A DNA stretch of 64,000 nucleotides from Botryllus schlosseri (GCA_051294905.1 CM119371.1:2172001-2236000); one strand, 5' to 3'. Numbered from the stretch's first letter, positions 10,101 through 59,073 are shown. A program made the numbers and translations. Notes: generated by a model not told the origin, from the sequence alone.

Positions 10101-10690
10101 TTTTCCTTATCATTCAGCGAGTCGATACAATTTGTACCTTATTCGGAAGGGAGGTGTTGAATTGGACGAGAGCACATCTCTTGCACATGCCAATGGCGGA
10201 ATTGGTGTAGATCTGAATACAAGATCTCAAATTTTCAGCAACATATTGAAATATACGAAAACGTGCTGGAAAACAATGAACATGCATTTGATGACCATAC
10301 GTACAATACATTCAATCTCAAAAAGGAAGCATTAAGTTTCTCAATAAATTCGACTTTTTTATATTTGCTTTAAACTTCCACGCACTTGCCGTGAATACAC
10401 ATTGAGTTCATTTTGATTTTTGGATGACGGATATTGATCAGTGATCGGCAACTTGTGGGTCGTGACCCCAAGCGGGGTCACCTAAACTATTTGTCGGGTC
10501 GCAATGACTCAATGGCGTTCAAGCCAGGTGGATTCGTGTCTCGAGCTATCTTAAAATTTCCTACACATTATCATATTTATGATACTGAGATGCCAACGTT
10601 TGTATATTGAGGCATAGTTATCCATAGAGGCAATTTTCAAGCAGTGATATGTGAGCGTGTTTGTGAAAGCACGGGCTGTTGTAATGGTTT
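7110..10690. repeat. Old diverged local duplication (~7110-8770 vs ~9790-10690); copy 1 is interrupted by a MITE-like insertion at ~7283-8180
   Basis: Shared blocks such as ccgattctatctccaata...ttagttagtacg and gaccatacgtacaa...aaaaaggaagcat occur in both copies in the same order. Confidence 0.75.
9260..9741. mobile_element. Short non-autonomous DNA transposon of the same family as the long TIRs at 41075-43985
   Basis: Ends aggtgttagaaaa ... ttttctgaacacccct. The body (acgttgcacaccaaatttgactcaattccaaccagtag) matches 41135-41175 and, inverted, 43873-43910. Confidence 0.6.
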
Positions 10691-13484: not shown

Positions 13485-13893
13485 TACTCATAGAAAGGCT
13501 TGGCCAAACCGTTTTCCATAACATCCAACGACACATTCGAATAAACAACAGCCGGCAGCCGCCCTTCGATAACAGCGAGAAATGTCTTCATGTCGCGTTT
13601 ATATCTGGACTTGACAATTGAAAGCAACCAAGCATTAAGACCAGGCACACACAGTATGCGCCGGAAATATAGTTTTACTGGCCTCTTATGAATGTATCTA
13701 TTTTTCCAATGTCGCCAACTATAGGCGTACTACTAGAGTAGAAATAATCGGCAACTTTATCAATATTGATGTATGAGACACGGCGCTATGATTTTCGTTT
13801 GGGTCTTCATATTATAAAGTTGAATTGCATAAAATCTCAAGGGAGTTCAATGCCATCTGTAAGAAAGGGTATAATAATTGTAAGGGATATATA

Positions 13894-15570
13894 CAAGGTT
13901 GCCATACCGTCCTTATTTCTAAGAATTGTCGTTATTTTCAAAGGCCAGGTCTTAGAAAACTCAACTGTCCTCATTTCTAAGAAATGTCCTTATTTTCGAC
14001 TTACGTCCTTATTTTGTCTTATTTTCAACAATTAAACAACTTCGATCGTCTTCCTCTGCTAATTATGTTGCATAATATTCTAAAATAATGATTTTGCTTC
14101 AAGATTTTATGACATCACGAATGAAGAGAACTCCCGGCATGCACGCTACACACCACAGGATTTGACTTCTAAGTTGTGCGATCATAGTGTCCTAAACGGC
14201 GTGGACATAGCGAGATTGGACGGCTCACTCCCTGGGTTTACATCATACTTTATATTTTGCAAAAAGCTATTTTACGGCCCTCTATCTTTAATAAAATGGG
14301 TAAAAATGGAAAGCTGGTACTGTACTGATTACGAAAATATCAATTTTACTCTTTTCGTGGCCCTACAACCACAGAAATGATCCTCAAATTTTCCATTGTG
14401 ACAGAACAATTCTGTCCGGCAAAACGAGATTGCAGCTCAAGAGAAACAGCCTGACAGCATCGTTTCGTCAAAGAGATAAACTCCATCGCAAGGCTAAATT
14501 TGAGGCTGAATTTTTTGGGGTGGGATGTCCAAGGGCCATAAGCAGAATGAAATTCATATTTTCGTAATCAGCACAGCTTTCCATTGATAATCACTTTGAT
14601 AAATTGATCGCTCAGCAAGCCTGTCAAAATGGACGTAAGTTTGAAATGACAGTCAAATCCCAGCTACCAGTAAAGGTAAACCTAGACCTCAGCCGTCGTG
14701 AGATTCATGAAGTACTTTCTAATAACAAGTAGTAACTGGAGCAGATTGTTTCTGACAAAAAAGTCTTCCAAGCAAAGTAACAATATGATATCATATATTG
14801 GGAGAAGCAACCGCTAAAACCACAGCATCAGGTTCTCCGTATCATAGCCAGAGCTCCAAAGGGACCGGGATATGTATCAAGCAAATCACTGCTCAAAATA
14901 TTCGTTGTTGTAGATTTAAAAGAACCAAGTTTATGTATCAGGGCCATTGCCCCGAAAACTTCAATAAATTCTTCACCTCGGTATCAAATATGCACGACAC
15001 ACGCGCGTCCACGTCGTCCAAGTACCATATGGTAGACAAAAAAGATCATCACTCTATTAATTATGCCGGACACAACTTGTAGAACAATATCTTGCCGGCT
15101 ATCCGGCAGTTATCGAGCATGTCCTGTCCACATTCAAGTCGAAATACAATGAATTTATATTGAATAAATCCAAATCAGTCCTCTAGTTTACCGAATCGCG
15201 AGCTGATATATCGATCTCGCCATCCGTCACTTGCCACTTTTTTGACTCCCGTCCTTTTATATTATCTTCTTTTACTTTTCATTCAGTGTGTTCATTCAGT
15301 GTACATGCCTCCTATGTACATCGCCTAGGCCAGGTGGGGGTCTGATTTCGAAGTTTATACTCCAAGTCGTTTTGAAACCTTCCTATCTTCCATTGTATCG
15401 CAGCCTCGTGGTGAATTAAAATGACGAAATTATCATAGCGATAAGATGGATTGCATATTATATGCCGAAGCTCGTATAAATACAAACAAAGTGTGCACAA
15501 AAACGCTTTTTAATGCTAATCTAATTTTTCGATTGTCCTTATTTTTGGGTCCATGTCGATGGTAACCCTG
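13894..15570. mobile_element. Non-autonomous hAT element with perfect 8-bp TSD gatatata (second copy at 16543-18219)
   Basis: caaggttgccat ... atggtaaccctg termini, with gatatata at 13886-13893 and 15571-15578 and gtccttattt subterminal repeats. Confidence 0.8.
14720..15170 (+). pseudogene. 3' remnant of a CR1/L2-group LINE ORF2 (also at +2649)
   Basis: KFMY...PENFNKFFTSVSNMHDTRAS resembles the FMY...P..F...F.....H...TR C-terminal motif of CR1/L2-group reverse transcriptases. It is followed by aataaa. Confidence 0.5.
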
Positions 15571-21055: not shown

Positions 21056-21829
21056 TGTATTCTCGAGCGAGGCAGGAACGAGCAATCGATACTCTATGGA
21101 AACTCGAAAATTATGTTTGATAGAAGCTGTAAGCCAATATGGAATAGGTGTCTCGTGGGGACTAAAGACTCTACTGAATACACACAGGTGTGAAGCAAGA
21201 CGCTGAGAACCGTCTTGGCACACCATATCACACTAAATGTATTAGGATTCATTCCATTTTCGAACATATTGATTGAACACCTAAACACTTCTTTCTTGTC
21301 GAGGGCGATTTCCAGAGTACGGGGTTACCGGTATCGACTATCAAGACATGTTACCATTTCTAAAGATTTCACATCAGACAACACCTTTCGTAACACACTC
21401 ATCCAGCAAGAGGCCATCACAATTTGGAGTTGGTAACCTCAATTCCTATCGATATACCAAGACTGTAATATTGTATGTGAGCACAGTAGAAGCGCGAAAC
21501 AGTATACCAATGCAGCACTGGTCTACAATCAACATCAAGTAGCTATAGGTTAGGTTTGCGCATTCGCCCATTCGGCAACATGAAGAACCATCTATTCTTC
21601 CTAAATTCAGGTGTAAAATTTTACCCTGTCGTTATTTTTCACTTTATCCAGTAATATAAGTGAGTTAGCCTGTACTCTGAAACATATTAGCTATATCTTC
21701 AACGTCCGATCAAATTAAAACTGATATTAGAACACTCAATCAGCTGATTTCATTCCATGTTTTGACTCAGAGCCATTCACGCACGTGAGACATTAGCTCC
21801 ACCACGCGGAATAACGTAAGGCGTCAAAT

Positions 21830-22070
21830 TATAGATAACTAAGGTAAACCGTAGATGCGACACTAACGGGCGTCACGTGATTTCGCGCTCTGATGACTGT
21901 CTACGCAGTTCGAGTTGTTTTGCTGGGCGCTTATGGAAGGGGATGTTAATTTCTGCATTTAAATAGGAATATCTATCCATGAGGTTAGTTTAGCGAGTAG
22001 CTACTCCGTGTGGTTACTAACCAAGATTATTGGGTTGATGCTACGCAATCAAAGCTAGCAAAACGAGGAA
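21830..22070 (+). repeat. Left TIR of the P element
   Basis: Reverse complement of ~36150-36386. The first 23 bp are perfect; the rest has scattered mismatches and one ~10-bp indel. Confidence 0.9.
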
Positions 22071-22300
22071 ATGAATGTCGTAATCATTGAATGAATGTGG
22101 CTGTTTTAAGTGGTCAGTGGTCTGTGGTCTTCATTAAGCAATAGATCATCCAAGATGACATGACATGAGATGGCATACAAATGCCTGCATTTGATTTACA
22201 TGATGTTTATGTTTTCATTGGATTTCATATAGCATTTATATGTTTGCATATGTTTTTTACAACAAATTTAATTACTGCGCTGTCAACTATCAATAATATT

Positions 22301-25300
22301 ATGCCAACGCACTGCGCTCTGCCTGGCTGTAACTGGTCTCGTTCCAGAAAAGAAAAGCGTAGTTTGTTTACTATTCATCGACCTGATTTGGCAAGAACTC
22401 CCGGCGAAAGAGCTCACCGGGAACAATTGACAAATTATATTTTATCTTTAAGAGATTACACCCGAGGAGATATTATTAAAGACATGTTGCACAAAGAAAC
22501 GTAAGTAGTTCGTCTAGTTTACAAAAGTATGAGTGTCCGGTAACGTAAATGGGTAGCCAAGCCATTTATGGTTAATCATGATCTCGTCGGCACATTTATA
22601 TAATATGTGAAATTGCAGGGCTGCCATTTGCGACCATCAGAGAGAGAGAGAGTCTTTATTTTCATCGAACCAAAATACATAACAAACGGCAGTGATGGTG
22701 GTACAGAAAATATGCGTGCACAGTATTCGGTATTAGATAGGAATGATCGATAAGACCATGAAGGTCATCTAGTCTGATCACACCAGCATCAAACAGGTAC
22801 ACTTGACTCAGAACAGTCTGGCTGTAAGAAATGTTTAGTTAGGAAAGGAAAATAGAAAAAAAATTAAACAATGGTAGCAAATGATCAATGAAGCAATGTC
22901 TGGGCGAGGTAGGGCAACAGTGCCATCACTTTGCTCAAGATGATATCATCTGGACTGGTAAAAGATCGAAGCTTCGTCTTGGTGCTCTGCCGACTAAAAA
23001 CATCTATAAGGGATCAAACTCCAGCTGCCTTCCCCAGAGAAAAACACCGGAAGTTAGAAAAGCTCTTCCTCCGGCGAAGGTTTACGCCTCTTTGTCAAGT
23101 GTAAAAACCGCTGCTAAACATTTGACCGATAATTACAAAGGTAAAATTTATAGTTGTTCAGCTGTAGTTACTAAGCTCTGATAACTAATATAAGCTTATA
23201 TGCATTCTTAGAGTGCTGGCTCATAACGGAGGAGGATGAAAATTTGATAATACAGAAAAGAAATGGAGTGTTTGATGATAGCATAGTACCCGAATTCAGG
23301 TTTGAATTACTATTAGGCTACATAGCCTAGTCTGAGATATTAGTGACATTACGAGTTGACATGAATTTTTATCTTGAAGAATTGTGATAGGCAGCGATGT
23401 CACAATACAGTCTATTGCATGCTATGGCTGGCAAGTGCAACCAGAAAATGTACAGCTTCCTCAAATATCATTTTGCTCTCTGACATCATTTTTAGGTAAG
23501 TAGACAGGGCGAGGGTTTATTATAGTGATTGGTACAACTGCGAAGTTTTCATTCAGGTGAACTGAACAGGATTGCTGTATGCAAGGGCCTTGCAGGTAAT
23601 ATGTCGGGCTGCGAGAAGCATGCAATTTTAAGTTGGGATGGGAGGAGATTAGTTGCCACGGATGTATTTAGATCACCAGGATGTCATATAATAGGCAAGT
23701 AGCACAATTACTTTCAGATGATTTTTTTTATATATGTAGGCCCTCCCTAGCGTAATTTCAGTACATACACTTGCAGGAAAAAGTTTTGAGGCAGATGGCA
23801 TTTGCATGGCTTGCAGCAATTTTATGCCAATTGACACATTCCACAATGAAGAATTAGAAATTGAGGAGATAGAATGTGACGAGGAGGTGGTATTGCTGCA
23901 TCCAGATCAGCTTTATTTATAAATAATGAAAAATTTCAGGAGTCAGTCAGTCAAGACAAATGGCAGAAAATGTTTTCTTCTACTCAGTCGAGCAACAGAT
24001 CAGCCCATAAAAATGCTCGTCGATACCCCACTAATGTAATTCAGTGGGCCGTGGAGCTTTTTTCCAGATCACCCGCGGCATACAAGTTCGTTCAGGAAAG
24101 TGGTCTCTTGACATTGCCAACAGCAAGGACGATTCAACGTTTTCGGTAACCTTTATTCATTCCGCTAAGTGCAAAATTTTTTACCTGATTATAATTGATT
24201 ATGATAGGAATAAGATCAAGCCTACTCCTGGTCTCAATATGATTGCAGTCAAGGAAATTGAGACCGTGATTGAAAACCATAAGGCTCTTCCGGCATATAT
24301 TACTCTCGATGAAATGAAAAGTTAGCATCAAGTTTTGTATGAAGATATTATGCATAACAAATAATCCTTCCTTGTTCGTTGACAGTACGTGAAAATATAG
24401 TTGTGAAAGATGGCACGCTGATTGGCTTTGTTAACTCTCCCTTCAATAATAAAGCTGAAATTGCAACACACATTTTAGGTGAGAAGTGACTATTCCAAGC
24501 AGTTTCAAATTGTATTCATGGTTTCTTTTTCCAGTTTTCTATGTCCGCTCCATTCGGAAAGAAATTTCGCTACCATTGGCATGGTATCCGACCCGGTCTC
24601 TTCCTCCTGGTGACCTTGCGGTATATTTCTGGGAGCTGCTATATGCATGCGAAACCAGGGGGTTGAATATCAATGCTGTGGTAGCAGATGGATTATCCAT
24701 TAATCGAAGCTTTTTCAAACTGATTTCGGGAGAAAAGAAGATTCCACTGGATAAACCGTTCACAGCACCAAACATTTATGCCCCGGACAGGCTCATATAC
24801 CTGTGCTCTGATCCCCCGCATCTTCTCAAGGTGAGCATATTTTTTATGGGATAGTCTGAAACGTAAAATTTGTGACACTCTTATTTGCAGACTGCCAGGA
24901 ATTCTTTGCTCTCGTCGAGGAGTGGGGGATCAAGATACATGAATATTGATGGCAAGGGCAACGATATATTATGGAGTCATGTTTTAGACCTTTACAAAAC
25001 TGAGTCTACCAGCCTTGTCCTGTACCAATCTGGACTAACTAGGGCACATGTAAAGTTGAATCCACGGTCAAAAGTATGTGACAACTCAGTGTTGCGGATG
25101 AATTTCGTTTCGAGTGACCCATGTGGGCAATTCCCTGCACAGACAACCGATGTTCCCACCACTACCTCTCCAAATCTCCTGAAATTTGGTACACGCACAG
25201 ATGAGCTAATTCCAAACAGGATGAACTTTATTTTATGAAAATTGGACATGGGGGTCAAAAGTTACGTCACTTTGAAAATTGACAATTTTCTGCTCATTTC

Positions 25301-28300
25301 GGGTCTGCACTTTCAGGTTTTATCAATGCAATATTCAAGAAGGTGTAGCTAGATGTTAGATGACAGTTGAGATACGGCACTTGGATTTATCTGAAGCTTG
25401 TCTGATCGTCTATATTTCCAAGTAAAATTTAATGCCCTGTAGGTTAGGGTCAAAGGTTAAATTGAGGGGGAATTTGGTCAATGGTCCAAAATCAGTCAGG
25501 CGTTACACGATTTAGACTGCGGATTGCTCAAAAACATATTATAATATTTTGGAAAATAGGATCTTAAATGAAAGTTTGCTTCAAGGAGACTTTGTTCATA
25601 GCTGTTTGATTTTGGCTATTAGACTGTAAAGTGATGAAATTGCAGTATCAAGAGCACACTTCATTTGCACATGGAAATGCAGAAGTAGTAGGGTGCGTTC
25701 GGACATCGAGTCTTGGGTGTGTGTGGACATCATGTCTGGGATGTGTTCCGACATCATGTCTTGGGTGTGTTCGGACTGTGTTGCCATTGAAACGTAGTGT
25801 CTGGGGTGAGTTCGGACTGTTTTGCCCCTCGGACATCGTGTCTGGGGTGGGTTCGGACAGTTTTGCTACTCGGACATCGTGTCTAGGGCGTGTTCGGACA
25901 TCATGTCAGGGGTGTGTTAGGACTGTGTTGCCACTCGGGCATCGTGTCTGGGCGGGGGGGTTCGGATATCATGCCTGGAGTGTGTTAGGATTGTGTTGTC
26001 AATCGGACATGGTGTCTGGGATATGTTTGTGCTGCGCCAGACATGCCTCAGACCTGATATCTGCGCACTATTTTTATCCAGACGTGCTCCGGAGCTGATG
26101 CCTGCGCACTAAATACCTTCAGGCATTGTCCGAAACGGATATCTGGACACATACATGCGTCAGACGTGATGCCCGCGTCCTAAACGACGCGTTTTTGCTG
26201 ATATCTGCGATAGCTAGGTATATCCACAGTGGTGGTAGCTGAGTATATCCAAATTTACTGTAGTGATAGCTGAGTACATCCACAGCTATCACTACTGTGG
26301 ATATAATCAGCTATCACTGATATCACTACTGTGGATGTGGATATACTCAGCTATCACTGCTGTAGATATACCCAGCAATCGCAGATATCAGCAAAAACCG
26401 CAAATATAGAGGTCATATATTGGTCAAATGTCGTTTAGGACGCCGGTATCACGTCTGACGCATGTATGTGTCCCTTAAGCCCGCAGATATCAGATTCGGA
26501 ATATGCCTGGGGGTATTTGATGCGCAGGTAAGAGCTACGACGCATGTCCACTGTCCAGATTAAAATAGTGGCAGATATCAGGTCTGAGGCATGTTTGGCG
26601 CATCACAAACATATCCCAGACACGATGTCTGAGCAACAACACAGTCCGGACACACCACAGGCATGATGTCCGAACACCTTCCAGACACGATGTCCGAGTG
26701 ACAGCACAATCCGAATTCCCCCCAGATACGATGTCCACGTTGCGAAACAGTCCGAACACACCCAAGACATAATATCTGAACACCCCAAGACACGATGTCC
26801 GAGTTGCAAAACAATCCGAACACCTCAGACCTGATATCTGCGCACTATTTTTATCCGGACATGCTCCGGAGCTGATACCTGTGTGCTAAATACCCACAGG
26901 CATCGTTCGAACCGGATATGTGCGCACTTGATAGCCATAGACATGCGTCGGACGTGATGCCCGCGTCCTAAACGACGTTTGACCTATGACCTCTATATTT
27001 GCGGTTTTTGTTGATATCTGCGATAGCTGAGTATATCCACTGTAGCGATAGCTGAGTATTTCCACATCCGCAGTAGTGATTGTGATATATGTGATAGTTG
27101 AGGTGAGTATAACCAGAGTAGTGATAGCTGTGGATATACTCAGCTATCACTACTGTGGATGTGGATATACTCAGCTATCATTACTGTGAATATACCCAGC
27201 TCTCGCAGATATAAGCAAAAACCGCAAATAAAGAGGTCATATATAGGTCACGAGTCGTTTAGTACGCGGGAATCACGTCTGACGTATGTCTGTGTCCACT
27301 AAGTGAGCAGATATCTGTTTCGGACAATGCCTGAAGGTATTTAGTACGCAGGCATCAGCTCCGGAGCATGTCTGGATAAGAATTGTGCGCAGATATCAGG
27401 TCTGAGGCATATCTGGCGCAGCACAAAAATATCCAGACACGATGTCCAATTGACAACACAATCCTAACACACTCCAGGCATGATGTCCGAGCCCCCCAGA
27501 CACGATGCCCGAGTAGCAACACACACCTGACATGATGTCCGAACACGCCCTAGACACGATGTCCGAATGGCAACAAATTCCGAACAAACCCTCGGCCCGA
27601 TGTCCGAGTTGCAAAACTGTCTGAACCCACCCCAGATACGATGTCCGAGGGGCAAAACAGTCCGAACTCACCCCAGACACTACGTTTCAATGGCAACACA
27701 GTCCGAACACACCCAAGACATGATGTCGGAACATATCATAGACATGATGTCCACACACACACCCCAGACTCGATGTCCGAACGCACCCTATACTACTACC
27801 GCATTTCCATGTGCAAATGAAGTGTGCTCTTGAAACTGCAATTTCATCACTTTACAGTCTAATAGCCAAAATCAAACAGCTATGAACAAAGTCTCCTTGA
27901 AGCAAACTTTCATTTAAGATCCTATTTTCCAAAATATTATAATATGTTTTTGAGCAATCCGCAGTCTAAATCGTGTAACGCCTGACTGATTTTAGACCAT
28001 TGACTAAATTCCCCCTCAATTTAACCTTTGACCCTAACCTACAGGGCATTAAATTTTACTTGGAAATATAGACGATCAGACAAGCTTCAGATAAATCCAA
28101 GTGCCGTATCTCAACTGTCGTCTAACATCTAGCTACACCTTCTTGAATATTGCATTGATAAAACCTGAAAGTGCAGACCCGAAATGAGCAGAAAATTGTC
28201 AATTTTCAAAGTGACGTAACTTTTGACCCCCATGTCCAATTTTCATAAAATAAAGTTCATCCTGTTTGGAATTAGCTCATCTGTGCGTGTACCAAATTTC

Positions 28301-29080
28301 AGGAGATTTGGAGAGGTAGTGGTGGGAACATCGGTTGTCTGTGCAGGGAATTGCCCATGTACCATATTTCGTTTGTAGATGAACGTGGCGCTGGCAATGG
28401 GTGTCCTATCTGAAAGAGTAGCTCATGGTCTGAGGCAAATGGAGCATAATGGAACAGCTGATTTCATTTTGATGATGTACCAGTATGATGAGTACACAAA
28501 TTTATTGTGTTTTGTACTGTCAAAAGTAACTTGGATTTTTGACAGGTGGTTCCACATAGTAACGTGCAGGGTCAACTATCCTATTTACAATATGGGGGAT
28601 AGTAGGATAAGTGCCCTTCGTGAGTTTGCGGACAAACTCGAAAATTGGAAAGTAAACTAAATACACTATACCTGTTTATTGCGATTCCAACGTTAAGGTT
28701 TTTGTTACAGAATGACTCTGAAGCTCGTAAAGAGCCCAAGAGGATGATGGCCCTGCCAACAATGGAGGGTCTTATTTTCACCTCGCGTAGTTTGATAGGG
28801 CTGTGCGAGCAGTTGTTGCGGCAGATGCCTCGTGTGGCTCTTGGCACATTCACCCAAGATGTTTTGGAAGCATTCTTCGGGAATTTGGTTTGGTTGGTAG
28901 CCAACTATGCAATAATATGTTAACAAAATCCTAATTTCTCAGAGGCAACGTGGCAGACGCTGTCAAAATCCCGATATTGGCCAGGCTGCCTATGGCATTA
29001 ATCACCTTTCACAAAGCAAGGTGATTAAACGATCGGCTATCTTCAACAACAACAAAAAAGCGAAGTTCTCGAAACGGTAG
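22301..29080 (+). CDS. P-element (THAP9-like) transposase, 15 exons, ~766 aa; this copy is disrupted by a retro-insertion in exon 2. Exons: 22301-22500, 22619-22639+22929-23140, 23212-23299, 23380-23495, 23557-23694, 23777-23886, 23940-24145, 24208-24320, 24386-24478, 24535-24830, 24891-25073, 28379-28482, 28546-28651, 28711-28887, 28943-29080
   Basis: THAP motifs MPTHCALPGC...ICDHHF...GALPT. HTH region RYPTNVIQWAVELFSRSPAAY..LTLPTARTIQRF. Catalytic TLDEMK, VVADG and FTQDVLEAFFGNLRQRG, plus SDPPHLLKTARN and KMNVALA. All GT(GC)-AG junctions are in phase and the exons total 2301 nt. Confidence 0.88.
22640..22922 (-). mobile_element. 5'-truncated LINE/SINE 3' tail inserted antisense in the THAP exon, 6-bp TSD ccatca
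   Basis: ccatca at 22634-22639 and 22923-22928. The minus strand ends aataaagac(tc)n and contains cagactagatgacctt, similar to the CR1-group 3' stem. Removing the insert restores C-D-H-H-F. Confidence 0.8.
25125..28356. mobile_element. 3.2-kb non-autonomous foldback element (Sola2-like termini) in transposase intron 11, 4-bp TSD atgt
   Basis: atgt|gggcaattccctgcacagacaacc ... ggttgtctgtgcagggaattgccc|atgt. Inverted arms are ~1.1 kb, with the outer ~560 bp near-identical. Internal cggacatcgtgtctgg and gatatactcagctatcac repeats; no coding capacity. Confidence 0.88.
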
Positions 29081-29205
29081 TTGTATCTTGTTTTTTTTTA
29101 TTCGTACCTCATATGAACAATTGAGCAATACAATGCGATTTACAAATATATCTTTCTTGTAAAAGTTTGCGCTTGAGTGTTTAAGATAGGAAGGTGTCGT
29201 CATAA

Positions 29206-29460
29206 TGTAGCGTACCGCTCCATGATTAACCCATAATTACCCTCGCTAATGACTGATTACGTTACTGCTACGTCTTGTTGTGTTGTACTCTTTTATGCAG
29301 TCGCTTTTAGTCACCGTCCGAGCAGTCGATCTTTAGTTACCGTCGGACGAACATCGTCATGTTTTAGTTGTTTTATTAAAAGAGCAATGCTGACTTGTCT
29401 ACTTTGATTTATCGAGCCGCGGACCAAGAAGAACGCGCGCCCACGACAGAGCACGCTATA
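29206..29460 (+). repeat. 5' LTR
   Basis: tgtagcgtacc...gcacgctata; no differences from the 3' LTR seen by eye. Confidence 0.95.
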
Positions 29461-29463
29461 TTT

Positions 29464-29481
29464 TGGTGACCCCGACGTGAT
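29464..29481 (+). promoter_or_regulatory. Primer-binding site complementary to the tRNA-Trp 3' end
   Basis: tggtgaccccgacgtgat, 3 nt downstream of the 5' LTR, is the classical tRNA-Trp PBS sequence. Confidence 0.9.
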
Positions 29482-29546
29482 TCGCCAGCCGACTCAACCC
29501 CAACGTGCACTAGCCGACTCGCATCCCTTGCTCCGCTGTATTTGAA

Positions 29547-30512
29547 ATGTCTTCTCGACGACGACGACGACAACAATCGATGGAAGATATTGCCAGCTCG
29601 GACAATTTCAATGGTACCCCGAGGATGCCGCCACCGGTGGTCAATTTCTGGTCCCATTCGCCAGAGTCGTGGTTTGTTTCGGTGGAAGCCGGATTTGTCA
29701 GTTATGGGGTTACGGACTCCGCGTCGAAGTATTTCCATGTCCTGAGATGTTTAGACGGCAACCAGCTCGAATCGATTCGATTGAAGTTACCTGGCCCAGA
29801 AGACGACGACTGCTACGAAGTATTGCGTGATCTTCTGATGCGTGAGTACGCTATTCCCTTGCGAGACCGTGTTAAGGAGCTTTATAGCGATCGCTGTAGA
29901 GATTTAAAACCCTCTGAACTTCTGAAAAAATTGCGGAATGCAATGGGGGCTCTATCAAACACACCAGGTTCTGACTGTTATTTGAAAGAAACGTTCCTTC
30001 ATCATTTGCCAGATCATATTGCTGGGATATTGTCGTCACATGTAGACGATACCGTGGAACAGCTTGCCCTGCGAGCTGATAGTATATACACTCGTGCGTC
30101 TCCACCTGTGATGTCCAATCATTACAGTTATCCTCGGACTAATCAATTAGATGAATTACAACGAACTGTTCAATCGATAGCTCGTGAGGTCAGAGAATTG
30201 AAAGCGATACCTCCGGCACGACAACTAACTGTATCTGACGGACAACGATCACGTGATTTCAATCGTAGTTCCGTTCCTCCCCATGAACCCTTTAGAGACG
30301 ATCGACCAGCTTTTCGAACTCTGTCAAACCGTTCAGAGACACGTGGTGAGGTAACTCGATTTGCTCATCTGCGTGGTACGAATCAGTTGTGCTTTTATCA
30401 TGATAAATTCGGTGATCGAGCTCGAAATTGCCGTCCACCCTGTTCCTACTCCTCAAATCGCCCTTTTTTAGACGGAGGCCTCGTGAGGGATCGCAACAAT
30501 TTTCAACAGTAA
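29547..30512 (+). CDS. gag: Gag (321 aa)
   Basis: FWSHSPESWFVSVEAGF..KYFHV capsid-like N-terminus and the C-terminal CHCC motif CFYHDKFGDRARNCRPPC. Confidence 0.92.
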   Translation: MSSRRRRRQQSMEDIASSDNFNGTPRMPPPVVNFWSHSPESWFVSVEAGFVSYGVTDSASKYFHVLRCLDGNQLESIRLKLPGPEDDDCYEVLRDLLMREYAIPLRDRVKELYSDRCRDLKPSELLKKLRNAMGALSNTPGSDCYLKETFLHHLPDHIAGILSSHVDDTVEQLALRADSIYTRASPPVMSNHYSYPRTNQLDELQRTVQSIAREVRELKAIPPARQLTVSDGQRSRDFNRSSVPPHEPFRDDRPAFRTLSNRSETRGEVTRFAHLRGTNQLCFYHDKFGDRARNCRPPCSYSSNRPFLDGGLVRDRNNFQQ

Positions 30513-33500
30513 ATGCCAACTCTGAATGTCAAAACCCTTTATTGCATGTACGAGATTCGATTTCAGGGCAGATTTTTCTCGTCGATACTGGAGCATCCGT
30601 TTCTGTTCTACCGACTTCAAGTAACGTTTTCAAGAATAAACCAGGACCAAATCTGTACGCTACAAATGGATCGAAAATTGCGACGTTTGGAACGAGATAT
30701 TTACGGATCGAGTTCTCCGATAGACCCAAGTATGGATTTCGATTCTACATTGCCGATACACACATTGCCATATTGGGGGCTGATTTTATTAAGCGATTTT
30801 CTCTCGTCGTTGATTTGAGGAGCAATTGTCTGATTGATACTGTTTCAGGAGGTTTCATTCCTGGCTGGAAGTGTAAACCAGTAGTTCGCGGTTTGAACTT
30901 TATAGCGCCTGATCACAATACGCCATATGCAGACCTTTTGTCGAGCTTCAACGACATTACCATTCCACGGAATGCAGCAGTACGAGCTAATCACGGTACT
31001 GTTCATCGTATTATTACTAACGGATGTCCCATTCGTTCTCGCTGTCGCCCATTGCCGCCACATTTGAAACAGAAGGTGAAGAATCGATTGCAAGAGATGT
31101 TGAAGTCCGGTGTAATCATTCGCTCAAAATCGCCTTTCGCCTCTCCCATCACTGTCGTACCAAAGGGGTTAGATGATATTAGAATCTGTGTCGACTATAG
31201 GAAATTGAACAATCAAACGGTCAAGGATCGATGGCCTGTCCCATTTCTACGTGATTTTACCAATGAACTGTCGAACTGTAATGTTTTTAGCAAAGTTGAC
31301 TTAGCGAAGGCGTACCATCAAATTCCTCTTCATACGGACGATCAAGAGAAGGCTGCTTTTATTTGTCCCGAAGGACTTTTCCAACCAACGACGATGATGT
31401 TCGGCTTGACCAACGCTTGTAGTACTTTTAGCCGTTTTATATCCGAAGTAACCGAAGGACTGGAGAATATTTTCGTGTTTTTAGACGACATTTTAATTAC
31501 GACTCGGACTGAAGAAGAGCACATGGCAACATTGTCGAAATTGTTTTCAAGGTTTCGTAAGTTCGGACTGGTCATAAATGTTGATAAGTGCAGTTTCGGT
31601 AAGGAAGAAATCGAATTTTTAGGTCACCTTGTTAATGCAAGGGGAATTAGTCCCTTGCCGTCTAAGGTTGAAGTAATCTCTAACTATCCTCGTCCCGAAA
31701 ATGTAAAACAACTACGTTCATTCCTTGGACTAGTCTGCTATTACCACCGTTTTGTCAAAAAGTGTGCCGAGATTTTGAAGCCACTGTATGACGTGGCCAA
31801 TGCAGCATCGAATAAGCGTGATCTTGTAAAATGGACAGATAGTGCTAACACAGCTTTCGAACGCATCAAGACCGAACTGTCCGATAATGTCATATTGTTC
31901 CACCCGATTCATGATGCCGAACTGTCACTCGTGGTAGACGCTAGTCAAATCGGAATTGGAGCTGTTTTGCAACAGAAACGTGATGATTCGTGGTTACCCT
32001 TAGCATTCTTCTCGAAAACCTTGAACCCGACACAGCGCAAGTACTCCGCATTTGATCGCGAGCTTTTAGCGGCTTATTCAGCAATAAAGCATTTTCATGT
32101 CCAGCTAAAGGGTAGGAAATTTCAACTGATTACCGATAATGACGGGCTTGTAAAATCGTTAAGGAATCCAACTGACAGACTTCTGGATCGTCAAGCAAGG
32201 CAATTGGAATTCATCACGGAATATACCGACGACGTCAGACACATCAAAGGGAATGTGAACACAGCTGCGGATACTCTCTCCAGACTCGAGGTGAACGCGA
32301 TTTTTCCGAACACTGTTCCCATCACAGCGGAAGCATTACTAGAAGCCCAGAAAGACGATGATGAGCTCAAAGAACTCCTCGCTAACGCCGATGACCACTC
32401 CTTGCATCTCGCGGAAGTACATTTCGAAGAGTTGAACGATCCTATCATCTTCGACAAATCGTTACCTGGTAGAGAACGTCCCTACGTTCCTGCAGCGCTT
32501 CGAGATACTGTAATGCACAGTGTGCATGATATTTCGCACCCCGGCATACGCGCGACCACTAAATTGATAGCTGAACGCTATGTGTGGCCTGGTATGAAAC
32601 GTCATGTGAACGATTTCGTCCGTCATTGTCAGCAGTGTCAACGATCGAAGATTCATAGGCATACTCGAACTGCAATCAACAATCTTCCCGTCCCTTCCGA
32701 ACGCTTTCACACGGTTAACGTGGACATATTGTCACTCCCGAATAGTTGTGGTTACTCGTATATTCTGATGTGTGTTGATCGCTATACTCGCTGGCCCGTA
32801 TGTGTTCCCATGATGGACATTCGCGCTCAAACTGTTATTGATGCGTTTAGTTTTGGCTGGGTGTCAAATTTCGGCTCACCCCGTAAAGTAATAACCGATC
32901 GAGGAAGTCAGTTTACCTCACTTGAATGGACTCAGTATATGCAATTCTTGGGTATTTTCCATATCACAACCTTGGCGTATAAGCCGGAACAAAATTCTCT
33001 TGTCGAACGCTATAACAGAACTTTGAAAGCCTCCCTCCGCGCATTAGAAAGTCCTCATAATTGGTATCATCATTTAGGCCTAATTGTTTTAGGGCTGCGA
33101 TGTTCTGTCAAGGAAGATCTCGGTTATTCACCAGCAGAGCTTGTGTATGGCACTTCCCTTCGATTACCCGGTCAATTAGTCAATCCCTCTTCCAGTGGTA
33201 ATAACGCTAATGATTTCAACTACGTTGGTGAATTGAAACGCTTTTTCTCAGCCGTGGGTGAGATGCCGACTAGGTTTCATTCGAATCAAAAATCTTATGT
33301 CCCAAACGATTTGAATAATTGCACGCACGTTTTCTTGCGGATAGATGGTCATCGTAGATCACTTGATCCGGTTTATTCTGGACCACATCAAGTTTTAAAA
33401 CGCACTCATAAATGTTTCACAATTCAAACGAATAAGGGTCCGTATGACGCCTCAACCGACAGGCTTATACCTGGCAGACTTCCCATCGAGCGTCTCGACG

Positions 33501-33625
33501 AATTGACGCCACTGCAAGTTGATATTTCGCGAACAAATACTGTGTCGGCCAGCGGCCGTAATATTCGTACTCCACATCACTTGAATGACTTTGTGTTGTC
33601 ACCAGTATTTAAAATGGATATTTAG
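30428..33625 (+). CDS. pol: Pol polyprotein (protease, reverse transcriptase, RNase H, integrase), probably expressed as Gag-Pol
   Basis: Protease LVDTGA; RT CVDYRKLN, KVDLAKAYHQI and VFLDDIL; RNase H VDASQIGIGAVL and DRELLA; integrase HDISH..CQQC, ITDRGSQF and VERYNRTLK. Uninterrupted ORF. Confidence 0.95.
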   Translation: MPSTLFLLLKSPFFRRRPREGSQQFSTVNANSECQNPLLHVRDSISGQIFLVDTGASVSVLPTSSNVFKNKPGPNLYATNGSKIATFGTRYLRIEFSDRPKYGFRFYIADTHIAILGADFIKRFSLVVDLRSNCLIDTVSGGFIPGWKCKPVVRGLNFIAPDHNTPYADLLSSFNDITIPRNAAVRANHGTVHRIITNGCPIRSRCRPLPPHLKQKVKNRLQEMLKSGVIIRSKSPFASPITVVPKGLDDIRICVDYRKLNNQTVKDRWPVPFLRDFTNELSNCNVFSKVDLAKAYHQIPLHTDDQEKAAFICPEGLFQPTTMMFGLTNACSTFSRFISEVTEGLENIFVFLDDILITTRTEEEHMATLSKLFSRFRKFGLVINVDKCSFGKEEIEFLGHLVNARGISPLPSKVEVISNYPRPENVKQLRSFLGLVCYYHRFVKKCAEILKPLYDVANAASNKRDLVKWTDSANTAFERIKTELSDNVILFHPIHDAELSLVVDASQIGIGAVLQQKRDDSWLPLAFFSKTLNPTQRKYSAFDRELLAAYSAIKHFHVQLKGRKFQLITDNDGLVKSLRNPTDRLLDRQARQLEFITEYTDDVRHIKGNVNTAADTLSRLEVNAIFPNTVPITAEALLEAQKDDDELKELLANADDHSLHLAEVHFEELNDPIIFDKSLPGRERPYVPAALRDTVMHSVHDISHPGIRATTKLIAERYVWPGMKRHVNDFVRHCQQCQRSKIHRHTRTAINNLPVPSERFHTVNVDILSLPNSCGYSYILMCVDRYTRWPVCVPMMDIRAQTVIDAFSFGWVSNFGSPRKVITDRGSQFTSLEWTQYMQFLGIFHITTLAYKPEQNSLVERYNRTLKASLRALESPHNWYHHLGLIVLGLRCSVKEDLGYSPAELVYGTSLRLPGQLVNPSSSGNNANDFNYVGELKRFFSAVGEMPTRFHSNQKSYVPNDLNNCTHVFLRIDGHRRSLDPVYSGPHQVLKRTHKCFTIQTNKGPYDASTDRLIPGRLPIERLDELTPLQVDISRTNTVSASGRNIRTPHHLNDFVLSPVFKMDI
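30464..30470 (+). promoter_or_regulatory. Putative -1 ribosomal frameshift slippery site T TTT TTA
   Basis: X XXY YYZ heptamer in the gag frame within the gag/pol overlap. pol is in the -1 frame, and a GC-rich self-complementary stretch (ggaggcctcgtgaggg) follows. Confidence 0.7.
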
Positions 33626-33962
33626 TGTGTTACTCATTCACTTTTCCGCCATCACTTGTATTATTTCGCTGCAGGTTTTTTTCTTCATCTCCTGTATGTT
33701 CTATAAATCGTGTCTTATTTAGCCTGTCTCATTGTAAAGTGCATCATTATCGCTAAACGAAAAATCGTGTCGTTAATAGCTTCGCCATTACGCCCATCTC
33801 ACTTTCATTAACGTTGGAGCATTTAGAATTGAACTCGTATTCGAATCGCAATCTGTAATCATTGCCGTGTCATGCTGGTAGGGTCCTTCATTCGTATTTA
33901 TAGCGTTGACTGATGTAGTTTCCATATTATATTCTAAAGCTTTTACCAACCAGGGGGGCCCT

Positions 33963-34217
33963 TGTAGCGTACCGCTCCATGATTAACCCATAATTACCCT
34001 CGCTAATGACTGATTACGTTACTGCTACGTCTTGTTGTGTTGTACTCTTTTATGCAGTCGCTTTTAGTCACCGTCCGAGCAGTCGATCTTTAGTTACCGT
34101 CGGACGAACATCGTCATGTTTTAGTTGTTTTATTAAAAGAGCAATGCTGACTTGTCTACTTTGATTTATCGAGCCGCGGACCAAGAAGAACGCGCGCCCA
34201 CGACAGAGCACGCTATA
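33963..34217 (+). repeat. 3' LTR, preceded by the polypurine tract agggggg
   Basis: Direct repeat of 29206-29460. Confidence 0.95.
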
Positions 34218-34294
34218 ATAACTTGTAGCAGTCTTTTCATCAGCAACCCACTTCGTCTAGCAGTCTTTTCATCAGCAACCCACTTCGTCTAAAG

Positions 34295-34704
34295 CAGTGG
34301 TTCCCAAAGCGGGCGATATCGCCACCCAGGAGGCGATTGCCAGGGTTGTAACCAAGCCAATTTCACTAACAGTTTTGCATCAAGTCGAAAAATTTCAAGT
34401 GACTGTTCTGTTCAGTGTTCACTTTTTATAACTGTTTGGTGACATCGAATGATTCGCATTGATTTTCATCACTTTCAGCAGCTTCTGGTAGCAAGTACCA
34501 ATTACCCAAAAGCGTGATTTGATTACTTAAATTACAATGTAATGTTGGTCTTGGCCGTCTCCGTCTGAGTCATATGACAAGGTTCAGTCAACTCGAGTCA
34601 TTACAACCCCGGCGATGGCGCGTTAAAACGGCTATATTGGAGTCAAGTCGGAGAAATGACCTGACCTGAGTCTGAGAAATGACGAAAAAGGTTGGGAACC
34701 ACTG
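34295..34704. mobile_element. hAT (Buster/Charlie-type) MITE containing a second nested hAT MITE at 34341-34611
   Basis: Outer: gtctaaag|cagtggttcccaa...ttgggaaccactg|gtctagag. Inner: gcgattgc|cagggttgtaa...ttacaaccccg|gcgatggc. Confidence 0.8.
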
Positions 34705-35110
34705 GTCTAGAGCATGTAGCCTGTATAAGAGGCATGAACAGAACACCGAAAGAATAGTAAGCAGACAAATTGAAACTGACAAATCATTGAAGTGGCATGC
34801 GTCAGTAGGCCCGAGAATCTATAGTGCTAGCTACTATTTCTTAATTGGAACTAATTGCATGTCGACTTGGAATGTTGGGACTCATTGAAAGAAGTAGTAC
34901 AATAGGCACAGTCTTATATTGCAAGGAAGTGCTACAACGTAAAACAAAATCTAGTCGGCATCTTTTGAAAGGAACAGTAGGCACAGTATCATGTTGCAAG
35001 GAAAGTGATACAAAGTCAATAAAATCATCTTGTCGTCAACTCAAAATGTAGAGATTGACCAAGTGTTGAACTTTGTAATGGAAATTTGTGAGATGCTACC
35101 TTCTCATCAC

Positions 35111-36106
35111 CTATTGCGATAGCTGACTGCGGAGTGAAACTGCTCCGGTAGTCACTTTATCGTGCAGACGTTCAAACAGTCTCTTTGCGAAGCTGTGTGA
35201 AAAAACTCGGATCATCAATGACGTTACGTAAGTGACGAGCTGTCTTATATCCAACTCAGATGCATCCTCAACACACAGGTCGTAAACCCTATGAATAAAA
35301 GATTCATAGTACTGACCACTGAAAATGGCGATTTTGGCATTTTCGAAATTGATGAAAGATGGGTGACGGTTGCTGGCTTCTTTACAGAATGTCAGATAAA
35401 CATGTTCCACATAAAACATATACTCTTCTGTAGGATACATTAAACACCCAGCCTTCCTCTCCATAAATGAAATAAAGGAGCCACGCGGTTGGTCGTTGCA
35501 CAGCAGCTTCACAATGTCGAAACGAAAGCGCTCACGTCCAGGAGGTCCTCGTGCCTTGTTCAAAGTGTACCCAGCAATGTACTCAAGAGTTTCACTCTCA
35601 AATTGCTGAATTGAACCACCTTTAGTTTCATCTTCTTTGACCGAACCCTTCATTATCATTAATTTCATTGCGTCTAGAAGAAACTTTGACGCCTCAATCC
35701 TAGATGTATTTTCATTGAAGTAGTCCTGTGCGTGAACTGCTTCAGTTGGATAATGCCGTATCACAGTTGCTGATTCTGGTTTCGATACAAATTCGCGCCA
35801 AAATCCATCAATCTTCTGCTTTCCAAATTCAGAAAGTGTCAGTGCACTACTGACTTGCTGAATGAAGTCAGCAGGCAGACTAGAATCGGAAAGGATGGCT
35901 CTCGTGCGTTTCCCAATTTTGCTAGCTGGTGCTTCATTTCCTTCACCGTCCTCCATGTCATTGTACAACAGATCTTGGATCACATCGTCAGTCAGAAGTG
36001 ATTCCCAATCAAATTCGCCTACATCAGCCATGTCCAAAAATTTACAACGATACCCACAATTATTCGAATCCCTGTAGAGAGTATATTGTATAACAACAAT
36101 TCTCAT
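35111..36106 (-). CDS. Second P-element gene: stand-alone protein resembling the P-transposase C-terminal domain (331 aa, or 306 aa from the ATG at 36031)
   Basis: Intact intronless ORF inside the TIRs. Motifs ETLEYIAGYTLNK, SFISFMERKAGCLMYPTEEY and LMIRVFSHSFAKRL parallel EYIAGYVIKK, GGLIKPS and FKIRIYFRIK as recalled for the C-terminus of Drosophila P transposase. Acidic N-terminus. Confidence 0.82.
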   Translation of the reverse strand: MRIVVIQYTLYRDSNNCGYRCKFLDMADVGEFDWESLLTDDVIQDLLYNDMEDGEGNEAPASKIGKRTRAILSDSSLPADFIQQVSSALTLSEFGKQKIDGFWREFVSKPESATVIRHYPTEAVHAQDYFNENTSRIEASKFLLDAMKLMIMKGSVKEDETKGGSIQQFESETLEYIAGYTLNKARGPPGRERFRFDIVKLLCNDQPRGSFISFMERKAGCLMYPTEEYMFYVEHVYLTFCKEASNRHPSFINFENAKIAIFSGQYYESFIHRVYDLCVEDASELDIRQLVTYVTSLMIRVFSHSFAKRLFERLHDKVTTGAVSLRSQLSQ

Positions 36107-36149
36107 GTAGTCATGTACCGTATAGCCATATTTAATGCTTTAAAATTGT

Positions 36150-36386
36150 ATTCACTTGCCCATCTCTCTAGCACTGATTATGTAGCATCAACCGAATAAC
36201 CTTGGTTAGTAACCACACGGAGTAGCTACTCTCTTAACTAACCTCACGGATAGATATTCCTATTCAAATGCAGAAATTAACATCCTCTTCCACAAGCTCC
36301 CAGCAAAACAAATCGAGCAGCGTAGACAGTCACCAGAGCGTGACGCCCGGCAGTGTCGCATCCACGGTTTACCTTAGTTATCTATA
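36150..36386 (-). repeat. Right TIR of the P element
   Basis: Reverse complement of 21830-22070. Confidence 0.9.
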
Positions 36387-39300
36387 GTCAAATAGGTAAC
36401 ATCATGCCGTTCGATATTACATTTCCTTCATAATCTATTTGGTTTTGTCATCTCTCTGAATTTTTTTCATCCTGTACGTATCGATATTATCGAATCAGTC
36501 GATAAAGTCATATTCAAATAGGGTACGTATTATAAACATTTAAAAGAACCATACTGCCAGAAAGGTTGGGAACCGAGGAGACCGCTTGCCTAGTAACCGC
36601 TGTATATATCGTTTTGCACTTGCCCTATGTCAGGGCCGGGCAACTTCTACGATCGGTGAGCCGGATATGGGAAAATTAAGGACTTTGCGGCCAGATTACA
36701 AAATACATATTTTTCCTTAATCGCGATTTTATCTACCTCTGTAAGAAATCAATTGTATTTAATGCAAACTTCAAGTTTAAAGCATACCGGTAGATATCAA
36801 AAACAGAATTTAATGAATTTATATACAACAGCTGTTAAAGTCAATCAGACATCTATGGTCGCTCAATACTGTCAACTAGTTTTTTGAGCGCTGATTGCAT
36901 GTCATATGCAAAAACCCTTAGTGATGACTGCACGCGAACATCAGTTATATTGCAACGCAGCCCTCCTCGTTAATGTTCGTGGCAGTGTTGGGATTAAGTC
37001 ACTGCTTTCAAATCACAAGTCATCTCGAATCAATGCACATTTTGACTCGAGTCAAGTCAATTCACTTGATTTTCATAGGTGACAAGGGTCAAGTCAATTC
37101 ACTCGATTTTTGAAGGTGACCTGAGTCACGTCGAGTCAAGTCAAGTCACAAGTGAAGTAACTAGTCAAGTCAAGTTGAAATTTCAAAGTACTAGACATGA
37201 TTCAAAGTCATTACTAAGGCGATTTTTTTTGACAAGTCAAAAAAGTCCATTTTTTTACATGAATAGATTGTTTTATTTAGCTGATTGTTTTATTTACACT
37301 ATATCATGAAACTTAGTTACTCCCGCCATTCCCCGGCTTCAAAAATCTAGTGTTTTTCGGCTGTAACTCGTTTTGTGTTCACAATAGAAAAAACTTTCTT
37401 CTTGAGACTGACAGAAACATGATGTTTTGGCAGCATTCATGACCCTACGACCAGTGGTTGTCGAGATGGGCAATTTCACCCCCTCTCGCGCATAAATTGG
37501 GGGGATGCCGGCTGGAAAATGGAGGCAATTCCCTAAAACAAATATTTATTGAAGTTTCTAGTCATTTTTCGGACTTAAGAACCCCCTTTTTTCGATTTAA
37601 ACAAAAAGTCATTTTCACTCCACCCTACCACGCATGCCTATTGACATTCCAACATTTAACGACAAAAATGAAGATACATATCCTCACATCTTCATCAAGT
37701 CTACCTACCTGTCATTCGAATAAAGTTCTGACACATGAAACGATTGTCTGGCATTTATCCTGATTGCTACGCAACCTTTTGTCACACTGTACGCATTCGC
37801 GTAAAATACATTGTCTCTCCATATCCTGATAACCCCCAAAAATGCAAGGCTCAAATAGCTGATTAATATTTATTTCAAATCAATTCTATGCATTTCATAA
37901 CATGAAAACGTAGCCCAATACAACATAAAATCACGGAAATTCCAGCCACTACTCTCTAAGTCCAAGATGAAGATACTCATTAGGAGTCATTAACAATACT
38001 TTAATTGAAAATTAGTCACAATGGACAGTAAGAGTAATTTATGGAATGTCAAGCAGCAAATCATAATATCTCAGTAAAAAGAGAATATTGAATCACATTC
38101 ATACGATTATCTGAAATTTCGATTGTTATGGGTTGACAATTCGCCTCTTTTTCAGTTAACTATGGTGTATTAAGTCATTTAGAATCAATTAATAACATAC
38201 GAATATTTAACGAGCTCATCAAGAGGGATGAGCGAATTATATTATGCTCGAAGTATCCAGAAACACCATGGTAGCAGAAAAGTACTGCGACCGTCATTCT
38301 ACAGAATAATATCAAGGTCATGAAATATCTTCGTAATGGAAGTTTTCAACTCGATAAGTTTACCTTTCAACACTCTCCTGAAGTCAACTGTACTAAAGAT
38401 ATAGAGAAAGGTCACAAGATCATGATAGAACATGGATAATCCTACAGAATTGACATTGCAATTGATTTCATACACTACACTACATTTATTTTCAACAAAA
38501 TTTTATATTTTATATTTTTTGGGGTTTTCTGAAGTATCTAATTTCTATCATAATACATCACACAAAACATAACAACACTACACACTGCACATCTAAGATT
38601 ATACCAATTTTTTCTTATCATTTTTCTATATTTATGTATTTTTTGTAACTTCTGTTATAATCAATTATTTTAAGGTGTAACACGATGAAATACATTTCTC
38701 TATTTTATCCCGCTATTCGATTCTACCTTGCGAATCAATCCTTATAATTGCAGAAAATCAACAGGATGACGGCTTGAACTCTACTGTAGTAAAACCATCT
38801 GCACATTGAAATGAACTTAAACCTTCATTTTCGGAAATATTTAGGATCGACGTGACGCTTACGGTATTACCATTATATTCGTCGAGTTGTGAAATTTTTT
38901 TGCAACTGTTTGGGTTACCTAATTGTGAAATGCAATATGCACAATATAAATACCATCGTGAAATTTCATCAATTAAACATGAAATAGCCAGTTTAAATTC
39001 TTAAATGAAATGCGATAATTCTACTCCCCATATTTTAATTTTGTTGATGGGAATCGTTGGCTCTTGTAAATGATCAACGATGTTGCTTCTGTTACTCTCC
39101 GTACAGCTGACTGGAAAACAAGTACCTCTGAATAAATCAATATCCTAGTAAATCAATCATGTTTCTCAACTATTCGGACTATGAGCCGGAGATGGACTGT
39201 TCACGTGGGTACGTCATAACACTGCACAAAATAGAATTCGACTTTTTGTAGACTACCTGGGCTTATAGTTGGATAGATTCAAGGGATTTAATCTACAGGT

Positions 39301-58762: not shown

Positions 58763-59073
58763 CTAATCTTCGAAGTAATACCTTAAGCTATCGCTGTCGG
58801 GTTCATGATATCTATGGAAATGCTCCTGATATACTCATATATTATGTATGTTCATAGTTCACTGAGCAGGATGCTACTATATCGTTCCCATCGATATGAT
58901 TTTGAAAATTGCTATGGTTCCAGCAATAGGCCTAACCGATGCGAAATTATAACCCCGAATGGATTGCTACGAAAAGATGTGAATATTGCACCATATCAAA
59001 ATGAGATAAATTCCAGATTAACACATAATATAGTTTTCCTACGAAATGAATCATTTGAAAAAGTATGACTCAC

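Follow-up and report, generated by a model that had tools for sequence, protein, structure and literature searches.

Descriptions of P elements, which are textbook transposons and serve as a major genetic tool, give them a single gene. A 64,000-nucleotide stretch of Botryllus schlosseri DNA (GCA_051294905.1, CM119371.1:2172001-2236000; hereafter the window, with positions counted from its first letter) raises the question of whether this holds throughout the P superfamily. At 21830-36386 it contains a P-type element whose transposase gene on the plus strand, ORF1, ends early, and whose minus strand carries a second gene, ORF2. Where, then, is the C-terminal domain of this transposase encoded, and what does the second gene contribute? 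We consider it probable that the element is a copy of a P-superfamily cut-and-paste family in which the transposase is divided between two genes.

Two convergent genes within one pair of inverted repeats

The stretch 21830-36386 is one P-superfamily DNA transposon holding two convergent genes. Its ends are made up of an outer inverted repeat pair (21830-21877 and 36339-36386, 48 nt, 94% complementary) and an inner pair (21883-22076 and 36150-36343, 194 nt, 87%), together forming terminal inverted repeats (TIRs) of about 240 bp, and GTCAAAT is found on both sides as a target site duplication (TSD). The ends of related elements begin CATAGATAAT. A preliminary description of this DNA had placed both genes within a single pair of TIRs and a TSD, and the repeats bear this out. 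Logan contigs from other sequencing runs were compared with window positions 34218-36450, and one of them (run X1) joins letters nearly matching the left flank of the element (21 of 23 identical) directly to position 36387, with a single GTCAAAT. We read this contig as an allele with an empty site; since run X1 contains the occupied form too, the insertion appears to be polymorphic. Another contig matches the right TIR to exactly 36386 and is unlike the window beyond that point, so that it reads as an element copy at another site. On the strength of these two contigs, we take the 7-bp duplication and the boundaries to be real.

ORF1 carries a P-type helix-turn-helix (HTH) domain (PF12017, 23880-24149, E 7.4e-7, score 29.9 bits, cut-off 23) and the N-terminal part of the TNP RNase H domain (PF21787, 24483-24854, E 2.1e-5, score 25.3 bits, cut-off 24.6), as found in Pfam searches with pieces of the open reading frame. 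The gene retains DEMK, AVVADG, PHLLK-TARN and QDVLEAFFG as intact motifs. For the exon at 24543-24830, the closest database entry is a transposase-like protein of 635 residues from Ciona intestinalis (P0029, 55% identity), which itself bears PF21787 and PF21789 and whose residues 155-611 align by tblastn along 23955-29032 in seven pieces. The insertion-domain region (24534-25076 and 28379-28648) aligns to residues 285-516 of P0029, including its PF21788 match at 380-489; the separate ORF1 exons give no direct Pfam match to the insertion domain, and GTP binding by this domain is putative. The introns, about 55-65 nt long, have canonical GT-AG borders, and the reading across their junctions is continuous with P0029 (QRFR/NKIKP, DEMK/IRENIV and THIL/VFYVRS, the slash marking the junction). 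Exons were delimited outside 22500-23955. At the N-terminus, THAP-like motifs are visible (exon 1 has C-x4-C and the following one CHHF...ALPT, with a non-canonical C-x2-H spacing), and neither N-terminal exon, scanned singly, matches the Pfam THAP family PF05485. The THAP-HTH-DDE transposase proposed in the preliminary description accordingly stands as to its HTH and DDE core, whereas the THAP part is seen as motifs without a family match.

The gene stops at TAG 29078-29080, 47 codons after LEAFFG, and no C-terminal domain follows in the same polypeptide; the last exon reads RQRGRRCQNPDIGQAAYGINHLSQSKVIKRSAIFNNNKKAKFSKR before the TAG. The early stop, previously put at about 50 residues past QDVLEAFFG, thus proved correct. 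With an RNase H core bearing DDE motifs, an insertion domain, an HTH, TIRs and a TSD in the 7-8-bp range, the element shows the features of the P superfamily, and because membership rests on the catalytic core, it is left intact by the missing in-cis C-terminal domain. It is conceivable that ORF1 gains a C-terminal domain through an unrecognised downstream exon or an alternative splice, with ORF2 as a redundant duplicate, and GT dinucleotides at 29021 and 29077 are possible donors for such hidden splicing. However, P0029 and three other tunicate proteins align straight through the 29021 site (gtgatt), no plus-strand frame in 29081-36150 resembles the family tail or the C-terminal domain, and the ORF2 homologues of related loci begin about 80-200 bp past the transposase stop on the other strand, leaving no room for such an exon. 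We consider this explanation very unlikely. A single raw RNA run (X21) gave 0 reads on the compared stretch 34218-36450, which is uninformative on expression or splicing.

On the minus strand, positions 35111-36139 form an open frame that contains LEYIAGYTLNK, RKAGCLMYPT and IRVFSHSFAKRL. It had been described as an intact frame of 35111-36106; its openness and the three motifs hold, whereas the start codon is likely to be the ATG at 36031, where relatives begin. The predicted protein consists of an acidic, partly disordered N-terminus, a confidently modelled helical domain (residues ~54-132) and a region corresponding to the P transposase C-terminal domain (139-292). Two relatives of 304 and 301 residues are 53% and 50% identical to it across their full length. 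Scanned exhaustively with HMMER, 1.84 billion representatives of every length yielded 26 relatives at E<=1e-3, all between 115 and 331 residues long, and in the same scan a fused relative was found in 0 of 26 cases. The relatives have common N-termini. Residues 1-138 have relatives among stand-alone proteins only, with no counterpart found outside the ORF2 family. One relative is annotated as a separate gene in the Ciona intestinalis RefSeq set (P0008), and another comes from Ciona savignyi (P0025). From these comparisons, we regard ORF2 as a gene of its own.

ORF2 also shows signs of constraint, being open and less diverged than its flanks. Between the window and a 1275-nt contig (run X9) there are 2 differences across the 918 nt that code for ORF2, compared with 14-15 in the 350 nt upstream. 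Across runs, the coding variants found are two synonymous changes, the substitution E30G, which falls in the disordered N-terminus, and a single 3-nt deletion that keeps the frame and affects a loop in which relatives have one residue fewer.

Other searches were less productive. The look-alikes of ORF2 in the ESM Atlas are unrelated bacterial clusters below the level of recognition; no relatives were found in a metagenome scan with the ORF2 alignment, and a scan of viral contigs with a further alignment also gave none. A second metagenome scan (query P0062) yielded one decayed, solitary ORF2-like locus on two allelic contigs (L001 and L002, 99.7% identical). L002 has an extra segment of 367 bp, which at its start codes for a transposase fragment of 22 residues, again on the same strand.

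ORF2 and the C-terminal domain of P transposase

In Drosophila P transposase, the C-terminal domain is all-helical, is attached through a flexible, disordered linker and contacts both transposon and target DNA, according to the review PMC7776569. This domain is represented in the PDB by chain B of 6p5a. Searched against the PDB, a profile of the ORF2 family matches 6p5a_B with E 4.6e-5, followed by the next match at 0.054, and the alignment passes through EYIAGY. The Pfam family PF12596 (Tnp_P_element_C) is found in 17 of 28 ORF2 family members at E<=1 and in 16 of 27 at E<=0.05, three of them above the curated gathering cut-off. Foldseek with an AlphaFold model of ORF2 (pLDDT 83.3) places 6p5a_B first, with a probability of 0.99 (next match 0.08). 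Superposition by VIA-align gives a Z of 10.3 and a root-mean-square deviation of 2.5 over 115 of 118 residues (next chain 6.4), with ORF2 139-292 corresponding to residues 617-734 of P transposase. The modelled ORF2 homologue of locus L008 (pLDDT 83.2; see below) aligns to the same chain over 118/118 residues with a Z of 11.3 (next chain 4.5). As both models are predicted and the folds helical, a Z of about 10 convinces only when combined with the evidence from sequence. The ORF2 family of the window and a second set, the proteins of seven further loci, are homologous across the C-terminal domain (162 columns in hhalign, probability 97.2, E 3.7e-11). The structural similarity anticipated in the preliminary description is borne out by the superposition, alongside the family-level matches of the profile and PF12596, and the modelled residues 139-292 of ORF2 fold as does the C-terminal domain of Drosophila P transposase.

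The complementary picture is seen in the relatives of ORF1. A search with P0029 led to 19 proteins from Ciona, Phallusia mammillata, Haliotis rubra, a EukProt protist, and ENA and Logan sources, and 20 ORF1 relatives (P0029, P0030 and P0041-P0058) were tested for the C-terminal domain. PF12596 or PF22824 occurs in 0 of the 20 (P0029 and P0030 at E<=0.05, the other 18 at E<=0.01), and the ORF2 profile scores no higher than 1.8 bits among the 18 listed of 21 sequences searched. All seven relatives with an RNaseH_C match terminate 40-49 residues past it, and nine relatives end in a common tail of the GN...PLxKR type. The most distant relative, P0058, alone extends into a FIGGYIQRK stretch, like a fused P transposase. 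Aligned to this single sequence with hhalign, the ORF2 family gave nothing significant, and a local hmmsearch with the ORF2 profile gave an insignificant match to the same stretch. The nearest relatives of both genes are Ciona proteins, ORF1 being closest to P0029, P0041 and P0042 and ORF2 to P0008 and P0025. Taken together, the ORF1 relatives indicate that the missing C-terminal domain is a feature of the transposase family and not private to the window copy.

The two-gene layout in other genomes

A profile scan of genome contigs with the transposase alignment identified 11 further loci (L003-L013). Their contigs, 29 kb to 2.6 Mb long, are filed as prokaryotic metagenome-assembled genomes (Nitrospirales, Nitrosopumilaceae, Nitrosopumilus, Dehalococcoidia, Stappiaceae and an unclassified 'bacterium'). 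The transposase exons in them are separated by GT-AG introns of about 45-100 nt, and because of these introns we take the DNA to be eukaryotic; the contigs look like eukaryotic DNA binned with prokaryotes.

In 10 of the 11 independent loci, which differ in flanks and hosts, an ORF2 homologue lies on the opposite strand, tail-to-tail after the transposase. Full homologues (stop-to-stop frames of 324-390 codons, open or nearly open) are present in L003, L004, L006, L008, L009, L012 and L013, the frame of L003 being in two parts through a frameshift (278 + 99 codons). The homologue begins about 80-200 bp past the transposase stop in six of these seven loci, and in L009 the transposase and ORF2 frames overlap by about 150 bp. 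Compared with the ORF2 profile, the seven frames reach E-values from 1e-8 to 6e-5 among 3029 frames. Each of the seven gene pairs is contained within one inverted-repeat pair with CATAGAT-type ends and is flanked by a perfect 7-bp TSD. In six of the elements the repeats begin CATAGATA or CATGGATA (the window element begins TATAGATAAC), while those of L009 are 613 nt long and begin TAGGGGTAAC. With a profile of the seven loci proteins, ORF2 fragments in the same relative orientation were also detected in L005, L010 and L011, and second, older copies in L010 and L012 show such fragments as well. Copies with ORF2 in sense and fused to ORF1, a possibility raised in the preliminary description, are thus not what these loci contain, seven of them as whole elements. 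On this evidence, the split layout is a feature of the family and not private to the window copy.

This recurrence bears directly on the notion of a private rearrangement or decaying remnant, in which ORF2 would be the inverted, functionless 3' piece of a once-fused transposase. The several nested insertions in the window copy would suit such a history, as would the local inversion in one relative copy (the second copy in L004), but the notion is contradicted by the same layout in 10 of 11 independent loci. It also sits poorly with the first 138 residues of ORF2, which are related to stand-alone proteins only, and with a frame that is open and less diverged than its flanks. We hold it to be exceedingly improbable.

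The elements look still mobile, as suggested by perfect end repeats of 36-50 nt, 7-bp TSDs, the empty site and a mini derivative. The end repeats of L008, L012 and L013 are 100% identical over 36-50 nt. At 12524-12571 of L008 lies a 48-bp palindromic mini-element that consists of the two terminal 24 nt of L008 and has a 7-bp TSD, CTGTAAC; this derivative is inserted in the spacer between the two genes of L008 itself. A nested arrangement was also observed in L006, where the two-gene element (8576-14068, TSD TTTTAAC) lies inside a second, related end pair (8083-14968) beginning CATAGATAATACACG. The outer ends are 34 nt long and 100% complementary with a TSD of ATTGTAC, making this a nested insertion into a relative.

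The coordinates of the window element and of the insertions nested in it are listed in Table 1. The foldback-like element is located not in an exon but within an ORF1 intron (25074-28378) with a GTATGT donor at 25074 and an acceptor ending at 28378. It landed in what was a 71-nt intron of the transposase gene, and its own target duplication is possibly TG. The Ty3/Gypsy long terminal repeat (LTR) retrotransposon has the pol domain order reverse transcriptase-RNase H-integrase, with an open gag-like frame of 332 residues (DUF7041) and a pol frame of 1069 residues, and is a young insertion. Very high summed depth in three runs marks 34293-34367 and 34518-34742 (maximum 3963, compared with ~10-40 nearby); both lie in the spacer between the genes and are high-copy repeats, probably resembling miniature inverted-repeat transposable elements or short interspersed nuclear elements. 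None of the delimited coding exons of ORF1 and ORF2 is broken by nested insertions. Subtracting the foldback and the LTR element leaves about 6.3 kb, and less still if the repeat at 34518-34742 is discounted, which revises the ancestral size of ~5.6 kb given in the preliminary description. Elsewhere in the window, at 58996-61521 on the minus strand, a 497-residue frame carries a NACHT domain (E 2.8e-19) and a NOD2 winged-helix domain, and a nearby frame has a weak leucine-rich repeat match; these domains identify it as an NLR-like host gene.

Table 1. Features of the two-gene P element in the Botryllus schlosseri window and of the insertions nested in it.
Feature	Position	Strand	Details
Left TSD copy, GTCAAAT	21823-21829		7 bp
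Left TIR, begins TATAGATAAC	21830-22076		inverted-repeat match
ORF1, multi-exon P-type transposase gene	22301-29080	+	THAP-like N-terminus, Cys-rich region, HTH, RNase H split by insertion domain
ORF1 exons with GT-AG checked, first set	22301-22500 (donor only), ...-24146, 24208-24320, 24386-24478, 24535-24830	+	
ORF1 exons with GT-AG checked, second set	24891-25073, 28379-..., ...-28651, 28711-28887, 28943-29080	+	
ORF1 exon, second catalytic Asp region (AVVADG) and PHLLK	24535-24830	+	55% identity to P0029; PF21787
ORF1 exon, catalytic QDVLEAFFG	28711-28887	+	P0029 alignment
Last ORF1 exon, begins RQRGRRCQNPDIGQAAYGINHLSQSKVIKR, then stop	28943-29080	+	ends where fused P transposases start the linker to the C-terminal domain
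Foldback-like element	25124-28357		567-nt arms, 99% complementary; internal arrays of ~41-nt repeats
Ty3/Gypsy LTR retrotransposon	29206-34217	+	255-nt LTRs, 100% identical; TSD ATAA; in the spacer between the gene 3' ends
High-copy repeat	34518-34742		intergenic spacer; summed word depth 178-3963, compared with ~10-60 over ORF2
ORF2, intronless, likely 306 aa	35111-36031	-	stop 35111-35113; start codon where relatives begin
Right TIR	36150-36386		inverted-repeat match
Right TSD copy, GTCAAAT	36387-36393		7 bp

A proposed divided transposase and its place among known systems

From the sequences, we infer that ORF2 acts in trans as the missing transposase subunit. Each gene would be transcribed inward from its own element end. 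ORF1 encodes the DNA-binding and catalytic part and ends just past the catalytic domain at the linker position; the two proteins would assemble on the element ends. There, the DNA contacts, to transposon and target alike, that are known for the C-terminal domain from the solved P transpososome would come in trans from ORF2, whose N-terminal ~140 residues may serve as a docking piece in place of the covalent linker. Since ORF1 stops at the linker position and ORF2 carries the domain, this two-subunit arrangement is the simplest reading. A bolder version of it extends to a widespread P clade, still mobile and with members in tunicates, a mollusc, a protist and the eukaryotes of L003-L013, in which the two-subunit transposase would be obligate, the domain split off at the flexible linker and the N-terminal docking module new; we see the chances of this version as evenly balanced. 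If true, such a clade would be a natural demonstration of the P C-terminal domain working in trans.

The main rival holds that ORF2 is a regulator. Its free C-terminal domain would compete for DNA or for the catalytic protein and so damp or time transposition, and ORF1 alone would be sufficient. The gene layout by itself fits a subunit and a regulator equally well, and the acidic N-terminus and helical domain of ORF2 are not present in fused transposases, as might suit a regulator. The KP and 66-kDa proteins are repressors of the P element; the known P repressors retain the N-terminal DNA-binding part and not the C-terminal part, which counts against this rival. That repressors of P elements can be truncated proteins is itself on record in the review PMC7776569. 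A whole transposase clade lacks the domain (0/20), and yet its elements look mobile. In addition, the domain contacts both DNAs in the solved complex, as described in the same review, so that some source of it is expected. On balance, we consider a purely regulatory ORF2 unlikely.

Several observations weigh against a transposase divided between ORF1 and ORF2. Taken alone, the window ORF2 has no match in Pfam or among PDB sequences, and its assignment rests on family profiles and predicted structure. The Foldseek E-value of its model against 6p5a_B is no better than 0.11. The second ORF2 set has no PDB sequence match at E<=1, and PF12596 is found in one of its seven members (E 0.003). Among the related loci, L007 shows no ORF2 detectable by the ORF2 profiles, and in the decayed second copy of L004 (15.3-18.0 kb) the distal half of ORF2 is inverted. 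The solitary ORF2-like locus of L001/L002 has no adjoining transposase except for the 22-residue fragment, and is uninformative on layout. Within the window, the ORF1 tail, SAIFNNNKKAKFSKR, is without the GN...PLxK(R/K) ending common to nine relatives, and no substitute tail exon with a GN...PLxK ending was found downstream; the last ORF1 exon of this copy may be altered. Finally, the intergenic spacer still measures about 1 kb after removal of the LTR element, compared with ~80-200 bp in other loci.

With Drosophila P (6p5a/6pe2) and THAP9, the window element shares an HTH, an RNase H domain with an insertion domain, DDE-type motifs and TIRs; the C-terminal fold and the YIAGY motif with the GL-containing motif that follows are shared as well, here in ORF2. 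Unlike in Drosophila P and THAP9, its THAP domain is seen as motifs without a Pfam match. Drosophila P has one gene encoding one six-domain chain, as set out in PMC7776569, whereas here the C-terminal domain is encoded by a separate gene on the opposite strand with ~140 extra N-terminal residues. The TSD of Drosophila P is 8 bp (PMC3698922), compared with 7 bp here. Closer in this respect are Galileo and 1360, Drosophila elements of the P superfamily with 7-bp TSDs, long TIRs and a P-type transposase; Galileo has a single transposase matching THAP9 residues 251-884, and no second gene is described for it in the accessible text (PMC4168063 for both statements). A two-gene P element is likewise undescribed in the literature searched, which included the available parts of PMC7776569, PMC3698922, PMC10824691 and PMC4168063, with Repbase, Dfam and supplements outside its scope. 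A convergent second gene for the C-terminal domain thus appears to be new for the P superfamily, with real uncertainty as to prior cataloguing.

A natural, separate C-terminal domain would support the picture of a loosely tethered module that acts across subunits, and the role of the domain would become directly testable by giving or withholding ORF2. P-homologous elements of Ciona were reportedly treated by Kimbacher et al. in 2009. Stand-alone proteins with weak PF12596 matches and 'truncated' P transposases of ~600-900 residues from marine invertebrates may be the two halves of one system rather than fragments.

The P superfamily would also join the superfamilies that use an accessory protein, such as PIF/Harbinger and others. 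PIF/Harbinger elements hold two genes within one TIR pair, one for the transposase and one for a non-catalytic Myb-like partner, and the window element and the seven whole elements resemble them by analogy in having two conserved genes within one TIR pair. The superfamilies are unrelated, however, and the Harbinger partner is a Myb/SANT-like DNA-binding protein and not a detached transposase domain. In the Transib-derived ProtoRAG, convergent RAG1- and RAG2-like genes lie inside the TIRs and both are thought to be needed. ProtoRAG, too, belongs to a different superfamily, and RAG2 is not a split-off domain of the transposase, as we propose ORF2 to be.

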